32,000 nt of DNA from Caldivirga maquilingensis IC-167 (GTDB taxonomy: Archaea; Thermoproteota; Thermoprotei; Thermoproteales; Thermocladiaceae), in assembly GCF_000018305.1 (NCBI RefSeq), contig NC_009954.1:1920001-1952000 (forward strand), read 5' to 3'. The position numbers were made by a program, and so were the translations under genes. Under the pieces are notes generated by a model. The model searched no databases and was not told the DNA's origin. It saw nothing but the letters and a program-made list of their open reading frames with translations. Position 1 is the stretch's first letter. Every line of letters begins with the position of its first letter. Positions 4,733-32,000 of this stretch are shown here, piece after piece.

Positions 4733-7198
4733 ATGAGTAACTATATACTTAAGGAGAAAGGTTATGTAACAGTAATACTACTGGTAACAGTAGTAATCTT
4801 AACTCTGAGCGCCTTAAAAGTAGCCTACGCTCAACAATCCTACCCAACTTATAATATGTATATGGCTGCTCCATGGTACTATGTCCTGCTTCCTCCTTGG
4901 CCTGCTCCTTGGTGGAATCCCTTTGCCTCAGGTAATGTGATATTCCAAACTGGTACATGGATGCCTCTTGCCGATTATAATGATCCCACTGGTCAGTGGT
5001 GGCCTGTTTTGGCTGAGAATTGGACTGTGTTTCCTCAGAATCAGACCTTGATAATCTACCTTAGGCATAACTTGTATTGGTTTAATGGTTCAGCGGTAAT
5101 ACCCTTCACCGCATGGGATGTTTACGCATGGTTCTACATTAGTGATAAGGCCTTTGGTGAATGGGAGCCTTGGTTAATGCCTCAGAATGCTGATAAGGAC
5201 TTCATAATCATAAACAACTACACAATATCCATACACTTCGACTACTGGTCAACCACAGGGTATTACTGGTTACTAATGAGCTGGATACCTAATACACCAT
5301 GGCCAGTTTGGGAGAGCGTAGTAAACGAGTTGAAGACAATGAATGTAACAGAGGCGCAGAAATTTGGGTCAGTTAACATAACAAAGATGGCTATACCATA
5401 CTGGGGTTTAAGCCCATACTACGTAACCAAGGCTACACCAAACTATATCACTGTTCAGCTTGAGCCTGATTACTTCCAGGGTAAGCCATTGTTGGCTGAG
5501 TGGGATAAGATACTACCATTCCACACATGGCAATACTATCCGCAGATAACAATAAACATAGCCGTATCAGGTGGATTAACTCAATTAGTATCATATGCGT
5601 TAAGTGGCCAACCATACTTCATACATACCGTTGAGGCTATGCCCTATTCATTCCAGAGTAAGTTGAAGAGTGCAGGCTACTACATACTTCAGCTACCTGA
5701 CTTATCCATTGAGGGAATAGCATTACCAACATATTACCCGTTTAATATTCCTCAGGTTAGGCAAGCATTCCTATACATCATTAATAGAACTGCTGCAGCT
5801 GCACCATGGTCATGGCCTAATGTACCAGTCTTCATTAATGTTCCAGCCCCAGCACCTAATACCGTGCCTGGCTTTTGGTTGACGTTCCCAGCGGATATTA
5901 GGAGTATGGTTGTTAACTTCACTGAACCAAACTTAACCAAGGCAATGCAACTCCTAGAGTCAGCTGGCTTAATTTATAAGAGTGGTCAATGGTACCTACC
6001 CAATGGAACACCACTAACACTAACAATATACGCTAGCTCCACAGCTCACCCAGCATGGATTGAAGCTGCGTCAATTGATGCTGAGGCTTTAACAGGATTC
6101 GGTATAAAGACCACTGTAGTCACCATAGAGGGTAGTACTTATAGTTCTGAGCTTGATAGTTGCCAATTACCAGATACTGGCACTGACTGGTTCTTCGCCG
6201 GTTCTAATAAGGGTGGTGTTAATGAATTATGGATATACTATGATGACGCACTTTACACGGCACCAGGCCTTTTCCCATCCTACTGTGTCCCTGGCCACAC
6301 TACGCCTTTCGCCTACCCGATTGTTCAGAGTAATCAGATTACCGGCTGGTATTGTAAACCATTAACCACCAACCTGCCTATACCGAATAACACCATTGTA
6401 ACATGCGTAAACTCAACATACGGATACATTAACTTGAGTAATTGGTTAGCTGCAATAGCCGCAGCTGCACCAGGCACATCAACATACTATGAGTTAGTTA
6501 AGGCATTCTACGCATGGTTCCAATACTGGGTACCTGGAGTGGAGCAGTTCCAGTCTCTAATAGCTTACGCATTCCCGGAGAAGATGGTTGATCCAGAGTG
6601 GGTTGTGACATGTATTAATTATAGTAATCCTGAGTACACTGAGGCAGCATATTCGCTGCTTCATGATTGGGCTATGGGTTGGGGTTGGGATGGATTCTAC
6701 CCAGGCTTCAACACATGGCTATTCATGGGTGGATTCGCACCTCAAGGCGTGATGCCTCCTTTGGCTGAGGCTATTATTAATGGTAGTCTTTGGACTAATC
6801 CGTATCTGCATCAGTGGGCTGTCTTAATAGGCTTACCTAATCCTGATCCTCAGTTGCAGGCTTGTGTTGCATCATACTTCCACACAACATACACACCGGT
6901 AACAACCACTACTTCAACCACAACCACTACTACAACAACCACTACACCGGTGACTACTTCAACTACTACTTCAACAACAACTAGTACCGTCACCTCAACA
7001 ACCACTGCCGTTGCTACTGTTACAAGCACAGTAACCAGTACAGCCGTAAGCACTGTAACATCAACAGCAACCACAACAGCAGTATCAACCGTAACCGTGA
7101 CTAAACCAGTAGTATCAACAGCATTAATAGCAGGAATAGTAATAATAGTAATCGTAATAGCAGCAGTAGCAGCAATAATAACATTAAGAAGAAGATAA
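4733..7198 (+). CDS. Extracellular solute-binding protein (family 5, oligo/dipeptide-type) with Thr-rich stalk and C-terminal membrane anchor
   Basis: Sec-type signal peptide ending VAYA|QQ. LRHNLYWFNGSAVIPFTAWDV resembles the family-5 SBP signature (LRxxVxWxDGxPxTAxDV). Many N-x-S/T sequons are present. A ~70-residue T/S/V linker is followed by a TM helix and RRR. Confidence 0.65.
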   Translation: MSNYILKEKGYVTVILLVTVVILTLSALKVAYAQQSYPTYNMYMAAPWYYVLLPPWPAPWWNPFASGNVIFQTGTWMPLADYNDPTGQWWPVLAENWTVFPQNQTLIIYLRHNLYWFNGSAVIPFTAWDVYAWFYISDKAFGEWEPWLMPQNADKDFIIINNYTISIHFDYWSTTGYYWLLMSWIPNTPWPVWESVVNELKTMNVTEAQKFGSVNITKMAIPYWGLSPYYVTKATPNYITVQLEPDYFQGKPLLAEWDKILPFHTWQYYPQITINIAVSGGLTQLVSYALSGQPYFIHTVEAMPYSFQSKLKSAGYYILQLPDLSIEGIALPTYYPFNIPQVRQAFLYIINRTAAAAPWSWPNVPVFINVPAPAPNTVPGFWLTFPADIRSMVVNFTEPNLTKAMQLLESAGLIYKSGQWYLPNGTPLTLTIYASSTAHPAWIEAASIDAEALTGFGIKTTVVTIEGSTYSSELDSCQLPDTGTDWFFAGSNKGGVNELWIYYDDALYTAPGLFPSYCVPGHTTPFAYPIVQSNQITGWYCKPLTTNLPIPNNTIVTCVNSTYGYINLSNWLAAIAAAAPGTSTYYELVKAFYAWFQYWVPGVEQFQSLIAYAFPEKMVDPEWVVTCINYSNPEYTEAAYSLLHDWAMGWGWDGFYPGFNTWLFMGGFAPQGVMPPLAEAIINGSLWTNPYLHQWAVLIGLPNPDPQLQACVASYFHTTYTPVTTTTSTTTTTTTTTTPVTTSTTTSTTTSTVTSTTTAVATVTSTVTSTAVSTVTSTATTTAVSTVTVTKPVVSTALIAGIVIIVIVIAAVAAIITLRRR
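6884..7104 (+). repeat. Low-complexity Thr/Ser/Val codon tract (stalk linker inside the SBP gene)
   Basis: Runs of ACA/ACC/ACT/TCA/GTA codons encode TTYTPVTTTTSTTTTTTTTTTPVTTSTTTSTTTSTVTSTTTAVATV... The tract creates the spurious antisense ORF 6850..7227. Confidence 0.9.
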
Positions 7199-9327: not shown

Positions 9328-9756
9328 TCACTTAACTATTAATACGGGTTTACTTGAATGCCTTGCAACCTTCTCTGATACTGAACCCAATAGGAACCTT
9401 GCTAATCCCCTTAATCCTCTTGAGCCGACTACTATTAAGTCCACGTTCAATTTATCCGCGTTTTCAAGTATCTTATCGGCGGCATTACCCCTAGCTAATA
9501 TGATGTCAGCATTAACACCTGCTTCAGATGCCTTAGCCTTCGCCTTATTTAATATTTCATTACCGATTTTAACCATGTCATCAATCACATTAACCATAAT
9601 CGGCATTGTTGATGCAGCCATAGCCACCTTATCCTCCTCAACCACGTGAATTATGTATAGGTTTGAGTTAAACGCCTTAGCCAACCCTATAGCCACCTCA
9701 AGGGCCTTATCCGAGTACTGGGAGCCATCCGTGGCGACCAATATTTTACTAAACAT
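9328..9756 (-). CDS. Universal stress protein (UspA family)
   Basis: KILVATDGSQYSDKALEVA...LYIIHVV...DLIVVGSRGLRGLARFLLGSVSEKVARHSSKPVLIVK is the canonical Usp fold signature. Confidence 0.9.
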   Translation of the reverse strand: MFSKILVATDGSQYSDKALEVAIGLAKAFNSNLYIIHVVEEDKVAMAASTMPIMVNVIDDMVKIGNEILNKAKAKASEAGVNADIILARGNAADKILENADKLNVDLIVVGSRGLRGLARFLLGSVSEKVARHSSKPVLIVK

Positions 9757-10312: not shown

Positions 10313-11955
10313 GAATCCTCATTAATGTTAATTGACATTGGGCGTTTACTTAAGTCCCATGCAGCCGAGGCTAATTTACGAATGAATTCCTCACTGTACT
10401 CACCTATTTGCCCGAGCTTAGCCTTATACCTACTTAACACCATGTTGAAGGCGAATAAGCTTATGCGCCTCACAATGAACTTAGCTATTATGTTCTCCAT
10501 ACTACCCACTATTAACTCCACGGACCTTATGGCCTCCTCCATTGATTTAATTAATGCCTTAAGTATGAATTCCCTTCTAAGTGGATCATCAATCATCTTA
10601 TCCAGTATGGTGAAGTCTCTTCTTCTGAGGGCACCCATTGGTATGAATGGTAGCGGGAATGTAAGTATCCTGTACTTCTTCAGCCTATCAAGGAGCTCAA
10701 TACTGGCTGCAACATCCTCATCCCTCTCCCCCGGTAAATTAAGTATCATAGTACCCACCACAACCCACCTATTGTCATTAAGTATACCAACTGCCTGCTC
10801 CACAATGTCAGGGTACTGCCTTGGCGTGAATGGTTTAGCCTTACCAACCATAAGCATGTTAAGTAACCTCGGTGACCCAGTCTCAATACCCATTTCAATA
10901 AAACTCCATTCACCACCCTCATTCATGTACTCCCCCACGAACTTAACCAAGTCAGGTGCCTGAACAACCACTGCAGCTGTTGTGAAGTCGGTGTGCAACC
11001 TGTATTCATCCCCATAGCGTTTAATCAACTTATACGCCTTAACCACTAGATCCTTAACCTTATCTGGATTAGGGTCAATGGACTTAGCCCCATATCTAAA
11101 GAATTCCTCACTATGAAGTGTAATACTCTTATGACCCCCCTTCTCAATGTTAATAATAATCTCCTTATCAATGTGGCCTTCAAATGGGAATGATGAAATC
11201 ATTCCATTTAAAGTAGGGGTACAGAATTCACAACCCCTACCGCAACCCCTAGTGACCTCAACTAAGCCACCTATTGATGGTGTGACTATGGTTGGTACAT
11301 CCTCAATGCTTGATGGCCTACTGTTAACTACCCTACCCCTAATATCCTCACCCTTAAGTATCCTCTCAAATAGCATTGGGCCATAGTTCTCGAAGCTACC
11401 CTCATACACTATATCAATACCCAACTTCTGCCAAGCCCCAGTATCCACCAGTTGCCAAGCCGCTGGTCCACCAACCAGAAGCTTAATATGATCCCTATGC
11501 GCCTTTATGGCAGGATGCTCAATAACCTCAAGGAACGACCTAGCTATATACGGCATACCTCTGTATGGTAAGTCAGCCAGCTTAAGGATCCAGTACAATA
11601 TGCCTGAACCGTAGCTAAGGCCTAGGGCATCCATGGTGTAGATGCCGACTATCCTCGTCCTTGGGCCAATAACCTTATGAAGCTTATATGGGCTAGCTAT
11701 TATTACGTCATCACGGTTAAAGCCGTAGTTCAGTAATGATGCCTCAACCTTAGCTAAACCATACGGTGCCCTCTTAACCCTACCCTCCCTATCACTGCTT
11801 ACATTAAAGAACCAGTGCGCTATCCTCTTCCTAAAGTAGTCATCAGGTATTGCGCTGGCAAAACCCACTACTGATGAACCATATGTATCACTTGCAGTAG
11901 CTATCTCACTCGTTAGAACTATTGGGTAACCATAATTGCTTGACCCAGATTTCAT
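10309..11955 (-). CDS. B12-binding-domain radical SAM protein (substrate unknown)
   Basis: A CX3CX2C cluster motif occurs in VEVTRGCGRGCEFCTP. The N-terminal region is Rossmann-like (IVGIYTMDALGLSYGSG, LLVGGPAAWQ), typical of class-B/B12-binding radical SAM enzymes. Confidence 0.75.
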   Translation of the reverse strand: MKSGSSNYGYPIVLTSEIATASDTYGSSVVGFASAIPDDYFRKRIAHWFFNVSSDREGRVKRAPYGLAKVEASLLNYGFNRDDVIIASPYKLHKVIGPRTRIVGIYTMDALGLSYGSGILYWILKLADLPYRGMPYIARSFLEVIEHPAIKAHRDHIKLLVGGPAAWQLVDTGAWQKLGIDIVYEGSFENYGPMLFERILKGEDIRGRVVNSRPSSIEDVPTIVTPSIGGLVEVTRGCGRGCEFCTPTLNGMISSFPFEGHIDKEIIINIEKGGHKSITLHSEEFFRYGAKSIDPNPDKVKDLVVKAYKLIKRYGDEYRLHTDFTTAAVVVQAPDLVKFVGEYMNEGGEWSFIEMGIETGSPRLLNMLMVGKAKPFTPRQYPDIVEQAVGILNDNRWVVVGTMILNLPGERDEDVAASIELLDRLKKYRILTFPLPFIPMGALRRRDFTILDKMIDDPLRREFILKALIKSMEEAIRSVELIVGSMENIIAKFIVRRISLFAFNMVLSRYKAKLGQIGEYSEEFIRKLASAAWDLSKRPMSININEDS

Positions 11956-12074
11956 TACCCCGACTATATTGACCTATATATTTAAGCCTTTCCATGATGC
12001 TCAAATCCACTTATTACGATTACTGACGAATACATTAACGTTAATCAACTAATGCCATGGAGGGATCAAAAGAT

Positions 12075-12083
12075 TTATAAAAT
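12075..12083 (+). promoter_or_regulatory. TATA box upstream of the zinc-ribbon gene
   Basis: TTTATAAAA is centred about 25 nt upstream of ATG12104. Confidence 0.45.
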
Positions 12084-12103
12084 AGGGAGGTATGGCTTAA
12101 CCC

Positions 12104-12346
12104 ATGTCTGAGGAAGGATGGCAACTACCAGAGGACTGGGAGTACTCTGGTGGCGTACCTGAGAGAATACTGAAGCTTAGAGCTAAGTGCCCATACTGTG
12201 GCCATGTGTTTGAACTTGAATTAGCTGAATCATGGTACAACATAGGTATGTCTGTGGCATGCCCGAAGTGTGGTAAGGAATTCTCAGTAAGCCAATACAG
12301 TGAGGTGTTAGGTGAAGTTAAGCCTAAGAAGCAGCAGGCTAAATGA
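12104..12346 (+). CDS. Small zinc-ribbon protein
   Basis: 80 aa with two CxxC pairs (CPYCGHVF ... CPKCGKEF). A good TATA box sits at leaderless spacing. Confidence 0.6.
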   Translation: MSEEGWQLPEDWEYSGGVPERILKLRAKCPYCGHVFELELAESWYNIGMSVACPKCGKEFSVSQYSEVLGEVKPKKQQAK

Positions 12347-26869: not shown

Positions 26870-27409
26870 TTATTGCTTATTACTCTCAGCCTTAGTGCTC
26901 ATGCTTTGTCCCTTCCTCCATGCCTCATGCTCACTAGGTTCAATACTGGCCCAAATCTCCTCAAGGGTAACGTACTTTAAACCAGGCCTAAGCCTGAGCA
27001 TTGAGCCTGGAATCACGTAAGCCGCCTTACCGCTGTATTCACTTGGTACACCCATGAATATTCTAATCCTCTTCAAGGCTGACTTACCCTTACTCCTCTT
27101 ATACGGAAGCATACCCCTAATAATTCTCCTAAGGATCCTATCCGGCCTCCTAGGCCACTTTGGCCCAACCTTCTCTGGGTTATAATGAGTCCTTATCTCA
27201 CTCATTCTCCTCTTAAACCAATCAATAACCATGTTCCTATCCCCTGTTACCACAGCCTTCTCAGCGTTAATTATTATAACCCTCTTACCCTGTAGTGCTA
27301 ATTTAGCAACCACGGTTGCTAACCTTCCTGCAACGTGGTTTGATGCATCAATCACTACCTCATTTTCCTTGGGTAATTCACCCTTATTAAGCACCTTAAC
27401 CTCACTCAT
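26870..27409 (-). CDS. rpl13: 50S ribosomal protein uL13
   Basis: VIDASNHVAGRLATVVAKLALQGKRVIIINAEKAVVTG...RRPDRILRRIIRGMLPYKRSKGKSALKRIRIFMGVP is the conserved archaeal L13 core. It has a ~35-aa C-terminal extension. Confidence 0.92.
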   Translation of the reverse strand: MSEVKVLNKGELPKENEVVIDASNHVAGRLATVVAKLALQGKRVIIINAEKAVVTGDRNMVIDWFKRRMSEIRTHYNPEKVGPKWPRRPDRILRRIIRGMLPYKRSKGKSALKRIRIFMGVPSEYSGKAAYVIPGSMLRLRPGLKYVTLEEIWASIEPSEHEAWRKGQSMSTKAESNKQ

Positions 27410-27569
27410 AACTTAACCGAGGCACACTGGTGGGGGGCCTTTTAAATAATTTGCACCATGATTAATGCTAAGCCCAGGGATTCATCATAATTTTCCATTA
27501 TTCAGCGTCAGTGAAGTTGAATTAAATGTTAAAAGCTTAAATAACCCTATAGGGGAATATAAGCGTATT

Positions 27570-28982
27570 ATGTTTAACTTAAGGAAAGGGCAGATGAGCG
27601 CCATTGAGGCCATAGTTATTGTAGTTGTTATTGTATTAATGGTAATAGTATTCATTAGACTAATCCCCAGTTACCTACCCACGGCAGGCAGTGAGGTTAA
27701 TACACTTCAATTAAACGCCCTGGCTCAAAGCCTACTAAACTACATTATCACTAATCCAGGTAATCCAGTTTACTGGGGTCAGAATGCAAGCCTAATGAAT
27801 GCCTTTGGCCTAGCCTCATTTAACTCACCCTACTCCCTTGATCCATTTAAGGTACTTCAATTAGTATTCTGGGACTATGCGAATAATGCCAGTGTAGCCG
27901 TATCGCCAGGCAATATTAGGGGTTACTGCAGTATTAATCAAATAAATGGTGTGGGTTTCCAACAATTCCTAAGCCAGTACGGTATTAGCTACGTAACCTT
28001 GAATTACCTCTGGTTATTCACTGTTGGTTACCCAACGAACTGGGTGATTAGTTATAATCAGGTTAAGCAACTTCTTGGTTTAGGTAATAGTTATGACTTC
28101 GTTATTGTAATTCACCCACTCTACATGATTAGGGTAATTAACTTAACCTCAAACATAGCCTACATTAAGGTTACCGACTACTCCACCGGTGTAGCAATAC
28201 CTAATGCGACGGTTACCGTGCAGTACTTTATAACATCACTGGCATCTAATAATGCTGTCTTTTACCAGGGTTACTCATCAGGAATAACCAACTCTAATGG
28301 GGTGGCTTCAATCAGCTTACCCGTAGCCTTTAACCCAAGTAATTACTACTACATGGTTATTACAGCGCAGACAGCTGGGTTGAAGGACTACGCCTACTAC
28401 CAATACCCTGCTATTCAAATACCATTACTAACCGTTGGCATAGTACCCTTAATTAACAGTAATGGGTATAGCGTAGTATTCGCTGACCCACACATATTCA
28501 CTAACTGCCTACTGGGGGTGAGTTTAAGTAATCCAAGTCAGTCTGCATTAGGTTTAAGGGTAGTTGCGGTATATAAGTCAATATATAATTTCACAACAAT
28601 GAGCATTAACTTCACCTTTAACCCATCTAGGGGTAGTAATAGTTACCCAGTTTCATGCACGATCTTAAGTAGTAGTAATCCTCCTAATTACTCAGCCTGC
28701 TACTGGAACCTACCCAGCACACCCATGCTTCTACTGGTTTGGATTCAGAGGAATAGCCAAGGCCAAAGTGGCTCAGTACCCTTAAGTCAATTACTGGTAA
28801 TACCCTTAGGCTATAACCCGGACTTATACTTAGTGAATAGGACAATAATCTTCGGTTACCCAGTTAAGTACGCACCCACTGGTGTGTCTAGGGCTTTAGT
28901 CTACATTGGTGATGCAGCCTACGTGATTAAGCTTTACCTATACTATAGGGGTAACGCCTTCAGCGGATTAGGGGTGAGTTAA
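27570..28982 (+). CDS. Large secreted protein with class III (type IV prepilin-like) signal peptide; contains a CarboxypepD_reg-like beta-sandwich segment
   Basis: The N-terminus from ATG27570 is MFNLRKG|QMSAIEAIVIVVVIVLMVIVFI: a basic leader, G-Q, then an unbroken hydrophobic helix. I count 8 N-x-S/T sequons. YIKVTDYSTGVAIPNATVTV...ITNSNGVASISLP (28161-28322) resembles the carboxypeptidase-regulatory-like fold motif. The track start at 27465 would add 35 non-signal-like residues. Confidence 0.6.
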   Translation: MFNLRKGQMSAIEAIVIVVVIVLMVIVFIRLIPSYLPTAGSEVNTLQLNALAQSLLNYIITNPGNPVYWGQNASLMNAFGLASFNSPYSLDPFKVLQLVFWDYANNASVAVSPGNIRGYCSINQINGVGFQQFLSQYGISYVTLNYLWLFTVGYPTNWVISYNQVKQLLGLGNSYDFVIVIHPLYMIRVINLTSNIAYIKVTDYSTGVAIPNATVTVQYFITSLASNNAVFYQGYSSGITNSNGVASISLPVAFNPSNYYYMVITAQTAGLKDYAYYQYPAIQIPLLTVGIVPLINSNGYSVVFADPHIFTNCLLGVSLSNPSQSALGLRVVAVYKSIYNFTTMSINFTFNPSRGSNSYPVSCTILSSSNPPNYSACYWNLPSTPMLLLVWIQRNSQGQSGSVPLSQLLVIPLGYNPDLYLVNRTIIFGYPVKYAPTGVSRALVYIGDAAYVIKLYLYYRGNAFSGLGVS

Positions 28983-28983
28983 A

Positions 28984-31080
28984 TTGAGGGGGCAGGCAGT
29001 AGTGCTCATAGCGTTAGTAATAGTCCTAGCTGCACTAGCCCTAGCCGTAGTGTTCAGGGTATTTGCAATGGCCCCAGCCTATGTTTACCAGAGGAGCATA
29101 TACTACGTCTTCAAGTATAACCCACTCCTAGTGACTCAAGGCTTAGCATTAAGCATGAATACTGCGGTTTACTCATTTGCAGTGAACTTTAGTAGGTATA
29201 TGGTTAACTACGGTGTAACAATGTACCTTCACGTACTGGCTGGGTGGACACCATTACCAACATCATTACTCAGCATGCTTCAGCAGGAGTTCAACCTAAT
29301 AATTAACACGGCCTACGCCCCCACAGGCTTAGCTGTGCCCGTGGGTCAACCAGTGTTTAACGTATCCGTATTCACTGATTTCTACGGTGCATTAGGGGTA
29401 CCTAATGTTAATATGATTTACAGTGGTGGTTCAGGGGCAGGTATTAGCATTGGTGTTTCACAGAAATTCAACATGCCCACCCTTGGAATTTACAACTTAA
29501 CCTTAAGTGATGCATTCAATTACACGGCGATATTCGTGCATCCAGGTAATTCAACATGCAACGTACCTACTAGGGCAATAACCTACACCGCAGTGTACTC
29601 ATGTACATTCAACTTCACATCACCCCAATACTACCGCTGCATTAACCCAGGCGTTAATGAAACAGGTTTAACATACTCAATCTGGGCTGGAATCCAATCC
29701 CCCCAAGGAATCCAAGAGGGGGCATTACTACTCTACCCCATTGATGAACTTGACTCATCAGGTGGCTTTAGGGTGAGCGCATTATTCAAGGTGACTAACA
29801 TAAATGACTTAAGCATAGGCTTAAGTATACTTGACCCATACCCATCAACCCCGCAGGGTTACGCTGGTTACACAATCATTGTGCAGTCCAGTTCCAATAA
29901 CCTAATGTACACAATCTATGCTGGCACTAATCAAGTAAGTCAAGGTACTGCGCCATTATCGGTATTATCTGGTAATGTAATTAACGTCACTATTCAGGTT
30001 ACTGGGATTACTGGTGGCCCATTCTCAAGTAACCCCACGGCCACAGCCACCTTCTACATTAATGGTTCAAGTGCTGCGTCATTCAGTGTTAGTTTGCCTA
30101 AGTGGAATTACATCTACTCGCAGGAATTCTCAAGTTATATGTATGAGTTGGCTGGTGTTGATAATGCCCAAGGTACTTATGCACCCATTGGATCATGGGT
30201 TACTATACTTAACTCAAGCGGTGCTAATATATTCATGGTTCAGGTTAGGCTTAAGCAAAACTACAGGCTGGTGGTTAATCCATTAATCCTAGTCAGCCTG
30301 AATAATGCACCAGCATTAGGCACTACACTTAACTTAGCGTACGTTAAGCCAACCGTGGGTTTAAGGTATCTTAACATTAGTTACGTTATATGCAATATAA
30401 CATCAAGTGGAGTAATCTATGAGGTTAATTTAAGCAGTATTAACCCGCAATTAATAGGCTACCCTTATAATCAATTACTAATCCTAACTAATTATTCAGG
30501 TATAGTGCTTGCCCTCAATCCATGGAGCCCAGGTGCCTTAGCCACGTATGGGGTTGATTACAGTGATTATATTCCATATTCGAAATATTCATCAACATCA
30601 ATGGTGGGTTACTATATTCAAGTCTACAATACGGCATCCAACTCATTAATCAACCTAGTTTACCTATGGAATGGTGGGGTGCCAACAGCATTAACAATAT
30701 ACCAGGGTGAATCCATACTAGTCTACTATGGCAGCCTTACTACAATATACCTGGTTAATGTGAAGGCATCCAGTGTTAACATTTACCCAGGCTTAGTGGG
30801 TTCACTTAAATTATACACCTTCAAAGAGACTATACTCAATATACCTCCCGGTTACATGGTGCTCAATGAAACAGCCCCATCCGCCTCACTTAACCCAGGT
30901 ATGGTTATAGCTTTTCAGTATCTACCCAGTGAAACACTACCCATAACTTACGTTAACTCAACAATAACTAACTGCTACTCGTTTGAGTATAATCAATTAG
31001 TTAATTATGCATTACTGCTTAATTATGTTCCCGGCCAGGGTTATGTTTACTATGGTTATGGGGGTGGTTCCGAATGTTGA
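28984..31080 (+). CDS. Very large secreted protein with class III-like signal peptide (MRG|Q...)
   Basis: The TTG start lies 1 nt after the previous stop. The N-terminus is MRG|QAVVLIALVIVLAALALAVVF. The protein is 698 aa with 16 N-x-S/T sequons by my count. It is rich in N/Y/S/T/V and poor in charged residues. I recognise no enzymatic motif. Confidence 0.6.
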   Translation: MRGQAVVLIALVIVLAALALAVVFRVFAMAPAYVYQRSIYYVFKYNPLLVTQGLALSMNTAVYSFAVNFSRYMVNYGVTMYLHVLAGWTPLPTSLLSMLQQEFNLIINTAYAPTGLAVPVGQPVFNVSVFTDFYGALGVPNVNMIYSGGSGAGISIGVSQKFNMPTLGIYNLTLSDAFNYTAIFVHPGNSTCNVPTRAITYTAVYSCTFNFTSPQYYRCINPGVNETGLTYSIWAGIQSPQGIQEGALLLYPIDELDSSGGFRVSALFKVTNINDLSIGLSILDPYPSTPQGYAGYTIIVQSSSNNLMYTIYAGTNQVSQGTAPLSVLSGNVINVTIQVTGITGGPFSSNPTATATFYINGSSAASFSVSLPKWNYIYSQEFSSYMYELAGVDNAQGTYAPIGSWVTILNSSGANIFMVQVRLKQNYRLVVNPLILVSLNNAPALGTTLNLAYVKPTVGLRYLNISYVICNITSSGVIYEVNLSSINPQLIGYPYNQLLILTNYSGIVLALNPWSPGALATYGVDYSDYIPYSKYSSTSMVGYYIQVYNTASNSLINLVYLWNGGVPTALTIYQGESILVYYGSLTTIYLVNVKASSVNIYPGLVGSLKLYTFKETILNIPPGYMVLNETAPSASLNPGMVIAFQYLPSETLPITYVNSTITNCYSFEYNQLVNYALLLNYVPGQGYVYYGYGGGSEC

Positions 31081-32000
31081 GGCTGGGTCAAGCTAGGTTG
31101 ATTGAGGCTGTGGCCGCGGTCTTAATAATAATTATATTATTCTCAATGCTTCCGCTTCTCTTTAAATCACCCCTTACACCACTTAGGAGTCAGATTCAGG
31201 TTGGTGTTAGTCAATACGCCTATAATTCATTATACACCCTGGTTACTAACCCATTATTCATAAATGCCTTAAGTAAGGGTAACTGGAGTACTATACATTC
31301 ATTGGCATCCGCCATAATTGGTCCTCAGTATAATTGGTTCATTGGCCTTGAACCCCTTTACAAGGCCTTAACCATAAGCTCATATAGTGTCATGCCTAAT
31401 TACGTTGCCTTAAACATAACCCTAGTACCAAGCCCAAGCACATACGGTGGCTATGCGTTAATTGATTTACCAATCCTCTTAATTAACCAGGGCTTACCCC
31501 TCAGTTATAGGATAAACACCAGTGTACCCATGGCTAACGTATTCATATTGAATAGTAATGGTAATCCTGTTAACTGGTGGTTAATGAGTTATAATTACGT
31601 CACTGGGGATGCCTTAATTTGGGTTAAGACTAGTTCAAGTAGGTTAACAATCATTGTTTCCAGGAATGGTTCCGTACCCTATAATCCAATCACCGGTGAA
31701 TACTGCAGTAACCCCTACTGCCCACCCTACGGTGGCTTAAGCTCATTCATGGCTACTTCACTGAATTTACCAATAGCTAATTATAATAATGGGTTAAGCG
31801 TGCTTAGTCAATTGAATGGTTTAAACCAGTACTGGTGGTTTAACCAATCTACTGCATTATGCTCCGGCGCTTACTCATTATCAGGTAACGTGCTTACTTT
31901 TAATGTTCCTCAATCATCATCAGCATCATGCACCTTACTTAACCCATCAATAATAGGTACGTACACAACATTAATTGGGCAGTTAATGAGCATAATACCT
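31074..32000 (+). CDS. Third class III-signal-like protein (partial, continues beyond the window); DUF2341/LamG-like segment
   Basis: Absent from the ORF track because it has no stop in the window. ATG31074 overlaps the previous stop (ATGTTGA). My translation is MLRLG|QARLIEAVAAVLIIIILFSMLPLLF... and stays open for 309 codons to the window edge. NVFILNSNGNPVNWWLMSYNYVTGDALIWVKTSSSRLTIIVSRNG resembles the DUF2341 pattern (F.d.dG..l.yw.e.w....a.vWVK......i.iyyGN). Confidence 0.6.
   Translation, partial: MLRLGQARLIEAVAAVLIIIILFSMLPLLFKSPLTPLRSQIQVGVSQYAYNSLYTLVTNPLFINALSKGNWSTIHSLASAIIGPQYNWFIGLEPLYKALTISSYSVMPNYVALNITLVPSPSTYGGYALIDLPILLINQGLPLSYRINTSVPMANVFILNSNGNPVNWWLMSYNYVTGDALIWVKTSSSRLTIIVSRNGSVPYNPITGEYCSNPYCPPYGGLSSFMATSLNLPIANYNNGLSVLSQLNGLNQYWWFNQSTALCSGAYSLSGNVLTFNVPQSSSASCTLLNPSIIGTYTTLIGQLMSIIP

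Follow-up and report, generated by a model that had tools for sequence, protein, structure and literature searches.

A cassette of five tightly spaced genes, designated A to E, was analyzed at the right end of a 32,000-nucleotide stretch of the Caldivirga maquilingensis IC-167 genome (NC_009954.1, positions 1,920,001 to 1,952,000 of the forward strand; called the window throughout). The five products are probably minor pilins or adhesins that undergo processing by a prepilin peptidase and are assembled in trans by a type IV pilus (T4P) machinery. The preliminary description of this DNA had offered the proteins as a candidate uncharacterised surface apparatus. The family is already described: the locus and its interpretation as a pilin locus have been known since 2016 as a computational prediction, and the five genes are arCOG05475 and arCOG10501-10504 in Table S4 of Makarova, Koonin and Albers (Front Microbiol 7:667; PMC4858521). 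To this census the present analysis adds a corrected start of A at 27570, by which the leader and the G↓Q site (the arrow marks the predicted cut) are regained, the invariance of the motif, the domain folds and the boundaries of the cassette. Further additions are the pilin-like character of D, a low-confidence galectin/LamG-like domain in B, and the extent of the B family.

The following features of genes A, B and C were located, given in window positions:

27570..28982, forward strand: gene A, 470 aa, stop codon TAA at 28980-28982; arCOG05475; RefSeq name 'Ig-like domain-containing protein'.
27570..27659, forward strand: class III-type signal region of A, with leader codons 1-7 at 27570-27590 and Q+1 plus hydrophobic domain, codons 8-30, at 27591-27659.
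28971..28978, forward strand: Shine-Dalgarno-like motif GGGGTGAG, 6 nt ahead of the TTG of gene B.
28984..31080, forward strand: gene B, 698 aa, TTG start; leader MRG, predicted cut G↓Q.
31060..31067, forward strand: Shine-Dalgarno-like motif GGGGGTGG, 6 nt ahead of the ATG of gene C.
31074..32000, forward strand: 5' part of gene C, ATG start; leader MLRLG, predicted cut G↓Q, then ARLIEA.
To genome position 1952672 (window-equivalent 32672), forward strand: complete gene C, 532 aa; arCOG10502.

The three open reading frames (ORFs) were confirmed on the same strand with the junctions described before. A single base separates the stop of A from the TTG of B, and the ATG of C sits within a 7-nt ATGTTGA overlap with B; C continues past the window edge. 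The N-terminal layout of a basic leader, G-Q and about 20 hydrophobic residues was likewise reproduced from the sequence in all three products, which begin with MFNLRKG↓QMSAIEAIVIVVV (A), MRG↓QAVVLIALVIV (B) and MLRLG↓QARLIEAVAAV (C). The unusual TTG start of B, already proposed, is supported by the orthologue in Caldivirga sp. UBA161, which has ATG at this position (MRGQAVLL), and by GGGGTGAG 6 nt upstream. The GGTG(A)-type motifs 5' of B and C are putative Shine-Dalgarno-like sites, called on the complementarity of the GGTGA core to the 3' end of crenarchaeal 16S rRNA. The 1-nt gap, the overlaps of 4-7 nt and the internal Shine-Dalgarno-like motifs suggest joint production of the subunits, perhaps in matched quantities.

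Two annotated starts differ from those used here. The 2016/GenBank start of A is 27594, at the Met after the Gln (27570-27593 clipped), and the 692-aa annotated version of B begins six residues in (28984-29001 clipped). Since both clipped forms lose the leader and G↓Q, the class III signal would be hidden from automated predictors. A longer, 505-aa form of A from 27465 was rejected; the extension is not conserved among orthologues, and the TATA-like box at 27537-27544 falls inside it.

Conservation of the N-terminal motif was examined in alignments of orthologues. Among 24 orthologues of A (44-87% identity), G7, Q8 and E13 were invariant. B, C and D likewise retained the [KR]G↓Q and hydrophobic-domain layout in their Caldivirga and Vulcanisaeta orthologues, so that the class III layout is conserved in homologues as the preliminary description required, and a basic residue (K/R) was found 1-3 positions before the invariant Gly across the orthologues of A, B, C and D. 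The glutamate shared by two of the three N-termini, which had been likened to the conserved Glu of type IV pilins, lies at +6 counted from the predicted cut, not +5.

In place of the exact FlaFind rule, a stricter ad hoc motif was used: a basic residue at most 5 aa ahead of the G, a Q directly after it, and next a stretch of 22 residues, of which no more than 2 are polar and at least 15 strongly hydrophobic. It was applied to 263 stop-to-stop ORFs of at least 100 codons from the window and eight related loci (L001-L008, defined below), and all 19 matches were cassette genes. Taken with the invariance of G7, Q8 and E13, this confinement shows that the motif is more than a chance occurrence. Orthologues of C fall outside the strict filter solely through the conserved Arg and Glu of QARLIEA; their layout is the same. 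In a hydropathy scan (Kyte-Doolittle, window 19, threshold 1.9), exactly one hydrophobic region, at the N-terminus, was seen in each of the A, B, C, D, D' and E orthologues scanned; in two sequences it appeared as two overlapping peaks. In A the segment comprised residues 14-32 (score 3.47) within a hydrophobic domain of residues 8-30. A, B and C thus each have a short positive leader ending in Gly at -1 and a hydrophobic domain of about 20 residues as the sole membrane segment, two features that mark class III signal proteins. In the 2016 tables arCOG05475, arCOG10502 and arCOG10503 bear a 'yes' flag, which may stand for FlaFind status (PMC4858521).

The extent of the cassette past 32000 was taken from orthologous loci and from Table S4 of the 2016 census. 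The loci compared were those of Caldivirga sp. UBA161 (L001), Caldivirga MU80 (L002), Vulcanisaeta thermophila (L003), Vulcanisaeta sp. JCM 16161 (L004) and the metagenomic contigs L005-L008. An operon of at least three genes had been described; the tight same-strand arrangement was confirmed, and its real size is five genes, A-B-C-D-E, with D and E just beyond the window edge. In the orthologous loci D encodes about 255 aa with the N-terminus MVRVG↓QSNVIGVVILI, and E about 185 aa. D is considered pilin-like on account of its single strongly hydrophobic segment and its G↓Q leader. Both Vulcanisaeta loci carry six genes, with D tandemly duplicated (D/D'; hhalign probability 99.8). The distal genes were located as follows:

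L001 14389-14955, L002 14512-15063, L003 16810-17355, L004 17065-17622: gene E, arCOG10504.
L003 15326-16805, L004 15478-17065: region of the D duplication, one copy with KG↓L or RG↓L in place of G↓Q.

The order A-B-C-D-E was retained in L001-L007 across five different sets of flanking genes. The cassette is flanked by rpL13 in Caldivirga and by rpL6 in Vulcanisaeta; in the metagenomic contigs the neighbour is a MoxR-type AAA gene or one for GH57. The cassette is self-contained and specific to the Caldivirga/Vulcanisaeta lineage. In the most divergent locus, on the shorter contig L008 (5287-9232), A is followed by a gene of 523 aa and then by a B-like gene with the leader ...RRG↓QMLILIV, so that cassettes may differ in the order or content of their genes. 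In L001 the genes A, B and C contain runs of N (at about 9650-9740, 10900-10960 and about 12000-12110) that break the ORFs artificially.

The mature parts of the proteins were analyzed by family scans, profile comparison and structure prediction. The AlphaFold2 model of A (predicted local distance difference test, pLDDT, 72.9; predicted template modelling score, pTM, 0.70) comprises an N-terminal helix, a helical region and at least two Ig/FN3-like beta-sandwiches of high confidence, and Foldseek matched it to tandem FN3/Ig modules in the PDB. The central all-beta region of B matched galectins, neurexin LNS/LamG domains and pentraxins with TM-scores that reach 0.62 on the target, which allows, at low confidence, a galectin/LamG-like jelly roll to be assigned to the B model. 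C has a weak DUF2341 (PF10102) segment at residues 158-190, with 17-19 bits and E-values of 0.002-0.1 against a threshold of 23.4 bits. This sub-threshold match recurred at one same position in eight of nine C orthologues; in UniRef, C is named 'DUF2341 domain-containing protein'. The 2016 census notes DUF2341 in adhesins of the PilY type and also in large T4P-associated proteins of archaea (PMC4858521). The structural checks proposed for the mature domains, carried out on A and B, returned adhesin-like beta-sandwich modules; as modelled, the mature parts are all-beta.

No Pfam or NCBIfam model reached its threshold in the cassette proteins, in NCBIfam nothing matched, and no catalytic domain was found, as had been anticipated from the lack of catalytic motifs. 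PDB sequence searches with the A profile and with full-length C returned noise only (E 0.4). By hhalign, similarity between the families did not go beyond about the first 30 residues, except that A aligned weakly with C over about 170 residues. Paralogy of A, B and C was rejected on this limitation; similarity confined to the N-terminus is the pattern expected of pilin-like proteins. Homologues of A were the same 45 Caldivirga/Vulcanisaeta-type proteins in single-sequence and profile searches, and a full HMMER scan of 1.84 billion representatives gave 10 clusters at 50% identity for the B family, which is confined to the lineage.

The composition noted before was reproduced: the proteins are rich in N, Y, S, T and V with about 6% charged residues, in contrast to 18-39% in cytoplasmic proteins of the window. 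A contains four invariant cysteines (C120, C313, C363, C377) and C contains six. Heavy N-glycosylation had been taken as likely from sequon numbers. The counts within the window were confirmed (A 8, B 16, C part 5), and enrichment over composition was seen in B only (16 against 9.0±2.6, p about 0.01); A (8 against 6.0±2.2) and full-length C (10 against 8.3±2.5) were not above expectation, so that the deduction is weakly supported. Sequons conserved in position were N72, N212 and N347 in A, N334, N471 and N503 in B, and N148 and N516 in C; these and the invariant cysteines of A and C would fit extracellular glycoproteins.

The genes of the window were compared with the 2016 census. Table S4 places the five genes at 1947594..1948982, 1948984..1951080, 1951074..1952672, 1952669..1953439 and 1953444..1954001 of NC_009954 (PMC4858521), which equal the window genes after an offset of 1,920,000 (RplM at 1946870..1947409, for example, is 26870..27409). 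There, arCOG05475 is a 'predicted pilin family protein' and the signature minor pilin of the subclade-4E system, arCOG10503 (D) is called a 'membrane protein' with 4 transmembrane segments, and arCOG10504 (E) is again a 'predicted pilin family protein'. The census calls the Thermoproteales T4P systems the most diverse on record; for the pilin-only, subclade-4E-like locus of Vulcanisaeta and Caldivirga, a subclade-4A ATPase was proposed as the partner in trans (PMC4858521). By Table S4, the C. maquilingensis genome encodes three FlaI-type ATPases (GI 159041007, 159041458 and 159041769), several TadC genes and four small PilA-family pilins (arCOG03871) at other sites. A prepilin peptidase, on whose presence the pilin interpretation had been made to depend, is also listed in Table S4; it is the sole one, of the short PibD/FlaK type (arCOG02298 FlaK/PulO, GI 159042330, NC_009954 1843156..1843869). 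According to the 2016 tables, Caldivirga has neither an archaellum system nor a clade-1 (EppA) system (PMC4858521). No mention of arCOG05475 was found in the later papers searched, and the system appears experimentally untouched.

From these data we infer cleavage, a partner ATPase, a position in the filament and an adhesive function for A to E. Each product would be a secreted, N-terminally anchored glycoprotein with a type IV prepilin (class III) N-terminus. After insertion by the Sec pathway, with the short basic leader staying in the cytoplasm, the single PibD-type peptidase would cut after the invariant Gly and expose the invariant Gln(+1). This Gln may cyclise to pyroglutamate, a modification found at the N-terminal Gln of Methanococcus pilins. 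The N-terminal hydrophobic helices of the five different subunits could then bundle into a short pilus-like stem, whose assembly would fall to one of the genome's three FlaI/TadC motors, acting in trans. Most likely the stem would serve a filament of the small stand-alone PilA-family pilins as its minor-pilin or tip (priming) complex. The beta-sandwich parts would face outward as adhesins or glycan binders, with Ig/FN3-like modules in A, a galectin/LamG-like one in B and a DUF2341-like one in C.

Several observations weigh against the assignment of A to E as minor pilins or adhesins. With 460-690 aa, the mature proteins are several times the size of the archaeal pilins whose structures have been characterised. 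The hydrophobic N-terminus of E starts almost at the Met and has neither the conserved G↓Q nor a basic leader; judged by sequence, E may be an unprocessed anchor or a base subunit, unlike A-D. In the model of A, residues 30-41 after the N-terminal helix form a low-confidence, Pro-containing linker, not the long continuous alpha-1 helix of a pilin. The model of B was poor overall (pLDDT 49.8), with values of 70-85 in the central region of about residues 180-520. None of the pilin families Pilin_N (PF07790), Class_IIIsignal (PF04021), Flp1_like (PF16982) and Arch_flagellin (PF01917) exceeded its Pfam gathering threshold in the cassette proteins. The best scores were 16.6 bits for Flp1_like (cutoff 33.5) in one of the 24 A orthologues and an E-value of 0.3 for Pilin_N in D; PF04021, scanned to E≤1, and PF01917 gave no match at all. 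In the Pfam/NCBIfam scans a match to DUF7288 was sub-threshold (E 0.08). The Pyrobaculum/Thermoproteus members of arCOG05475, whose loci do include the 4E ATPase and TadC, were not recovered with A by single-sequence and profile searches, nor were Thermofilum relatives by the profile search; the sensitivity of these searches is limited by a word-index prefilter.

Linkage to an assembly machinery was also lacking. No gene for a PilB/FlaI ATPase, a TadC/FlaJ protein or a peptidase adjoins the cassette in L001-L008, and no gene of the T2SSE or T2SSF family was found within about 10 kb of it in these loci. The connection to T4P machinery is therefore by analogy only. The preliminary description had looked to the DNA past 32000 for such genes. 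In place of an ATPase, platform or peptidase, two more pilin-like genes follow; the C. maquilingensis cassette ends at 1954001, and the next gene, on the opposite strand, encodes an Lhr helicase (Table S4).

The main rival explanation is that the N-termini are uncleaved signal anchors. A to E would then be type II membrane glycoproteins forming an envelope complex with lectin/Ig domains in the pseudo-periplasm or S-layer, with no filament and no need for a T4P ATPase. The very large subunits, the cassette standing apart from ATPase, TadC and peptidase genes in every context examined, the Pro-containing linker of A, the E protein without a G↓Q leader and the sub-threshold pilin models all agree with such anchors. 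Plain anchors leave unexplained the invariant G-Q-x4-E at the boundary between leader and hydrophobic stretch in 24 orthologues, and the G-Q layout in four non-homologous families. Helices of the pilin type are marked by a charged Glu close to where the hydrophobic stretch begins (PMC4371748), and the genome has a prepilin peptidase as well as ATPases, some with few obvious substrates nearby. On balance, we consider uncleaved anchors improbable.

A bindosome-like assembly, in which PibD-processed proteins with a Bas-like organisation form a surface layer that captures substrate or glycan and no pilus tip or shaft is built, appears more doubtful still. It would account for large class III-signal proteins with lectin-like folds, and Sulfolobus solute-binding proteins with class III signals provide a precedent (PMC4371748). 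The window itself contains, at 4733-7198, an SBP_bac_5 protein with KG↓Y and a hydrophobic N-terminus. Against it, A, B and C have no solute-binding-protein domain in Pfam or NCBIfam, the Caldivirga, Vulcanisaeta-type and metagenomic loci examined have no ABC transporter genes next to the cassette, and five different co-translated subunits resemble a structural hetero-complex more than independent binding proteins. Least probable, and very unlikely, is a giant pilin, with at least one of the large proteins forming the bulk of a thick filament that is heavily glycosylated. Class III N-termini and archaeal T4P operons with 'relatively large pilins', e.g. H. volcanii PilB4/C4 (PMC4371748), would be in line with it. 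Against it, the five different proteins are encoded in single copy in a tightly coupled operon in which only the smaller D is duplicated, the role of major pilin is expected of the several small PilA-family pilins (arCOG03871), and a T4P helical lattice would accommodate bulky, multi-domain bodies of 460-690 aa only with difficulty.

Other features around the cassette were recorded as follows:

27537..27544, forward strand: TATA-like box TTAAATAA, centred about 29 nt 5' of the ATG at 27570 and preceded by A-rich AAAAGC.
27440-27449: TATA-like box TTTTAAATAA, fitting the divergent minus-strand rpL13 with start at 27409.
L003 20312-21509, L004 18449-19921, L005 10230-11075: DUF87/HerA-like ATPase gene, convergent to the cassette end, with weak TrwB_AAD_bind or AAA_10 matches.
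4733-7198, forward strand: SBP_bac_5 protein, 821 aa, Pfam E 1.5e-21, N-terminus MSNYILKEKG↓YVTVILLVTVVILTL.

By the spacing rule of archaeal TATA boxes, TTAAATAA is likely the promoter of the cassette, with a nearly leaderless transcript starting at about 27567-27570. On the same grounds TTTTAAATAA was assigned to rpL13; both rpL13 and gene A would be nearly leaderless, and 27410-27569 would form a divergent promoter region. The DUF87 ATPase was considered as a cassette component and rejected, since it was found beside Vulcanisaeta-type cassettes only and is absent in Caldivirga, where the cassette is followed by the Lhr helicase gene and by one Trm112-like and one SMC/Rad50-like gene; it probably reflects local synteny. 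The SBP_bac_5 protein has 1.8 sequons per 100 aa and few charged residues. Its N-terminus resembles a class III signal or an N-terminal anchor, and it could be a substrate-binding protein of the bindosome type.

The functions of archaeal minor pilins and tip adhesins are almost entirely unexplored. With five different pilin-like proteins that carry lectin/Ig-type ectodomains, are tightly co-translated and are encoded apart from any motor, the cassette offers a compact test case for the priming and tipping of pili, for the pairing of pilin sets with ATPases in trans, and for the adhesion targets of hyperthermoacidophiles. A more far-reaching version of the minor-pilin assignment holds that all five proteins, those of 470-700 aa included, are genuine PibD substrates with Gln/pyroglutamate N-termini and that they join by their N-terminal helices into a lectin-bearing complex, a pseudopilus or pilus tip, that is peculiar to Caldivirga and Vulcanisaeta. 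We regard this version as unlikely; if it were true, no larger subunits of a type IV filament would be known.

Among known systems, the subclade-4E-like T4P pilin locus of Thermoproteales is the identical locus, with no difference of substance (PMC4858521). The Sulfolobus bindosome (BasEF/BasABC) is similar in that large non-pilin proteins (>400 aa) with PibD-processed class III signals are displayed at the surface without a long filament (PMC4371748). Unlike bindosome components, A-C show no solute-binding fold or Pfam match, and no adjacent ABC transporter or Bas-like ATPase/TadC pair was found.

The Epd pili of Methanococcus maripaludis share with the cassette the [KR]G↓Q cut, Gln at +1, an acidic residue shortly into the hydrophobic domain, and several minor pilins per pilus (PMC4371748). 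Cleavage at KG↓Q with Gln +1 is experimentally established for the EppA-processed Epd pilins EpdA-E (DUF361/PF04021; PMC4371748). The cassette differs from Epd in the Glu at +6 as opposed to +5, in the lack of a PF04021 match, and in the peptidase, which is a short arCOG02298 enzyme in Caldivirga, whereas EppA is the long clade-1 form. Thus, of the traits of EppA-dependent (DUF361) pilins, Gln +1 is present, and Glu +5 and an EppA-type peptidase are not. Epd pilins are small, and the cassette proteins have 180-700 aa. By the 2016 tables, the [KR]G↓Q signature of EppA substrates here occurs in a crenarchaeon that has a PibD-type enzyme only.

The cassette may also act like the tips formed by bacterial FimU-PilVWXE with PilY1 and by GspH-I-J-K of the type II secretion system, in which four or five pilin-like proteins and a large adhesin, encoded apart from the ATPase, are placed at the tip. 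PilY1, with its ordinary signal peptide, docks onto the minor pilins. In the cassette, by contrast, the adhesin-like domains are fused directly to pilin-type N-termini, and sequence homology to the bacterial proteins was not detectable; the analogy with the minor-pilin/PilY1 complex would be a functional one only. If the far-reaching version were correct, the cassette would represent, in a crenarchaeon and with PibD as the processing enzyme, what the EppA G↓Q pilins are in euryarchaea, and in archaea it would parallel the priming complex that bacteria form from minor pilins and PilY1.

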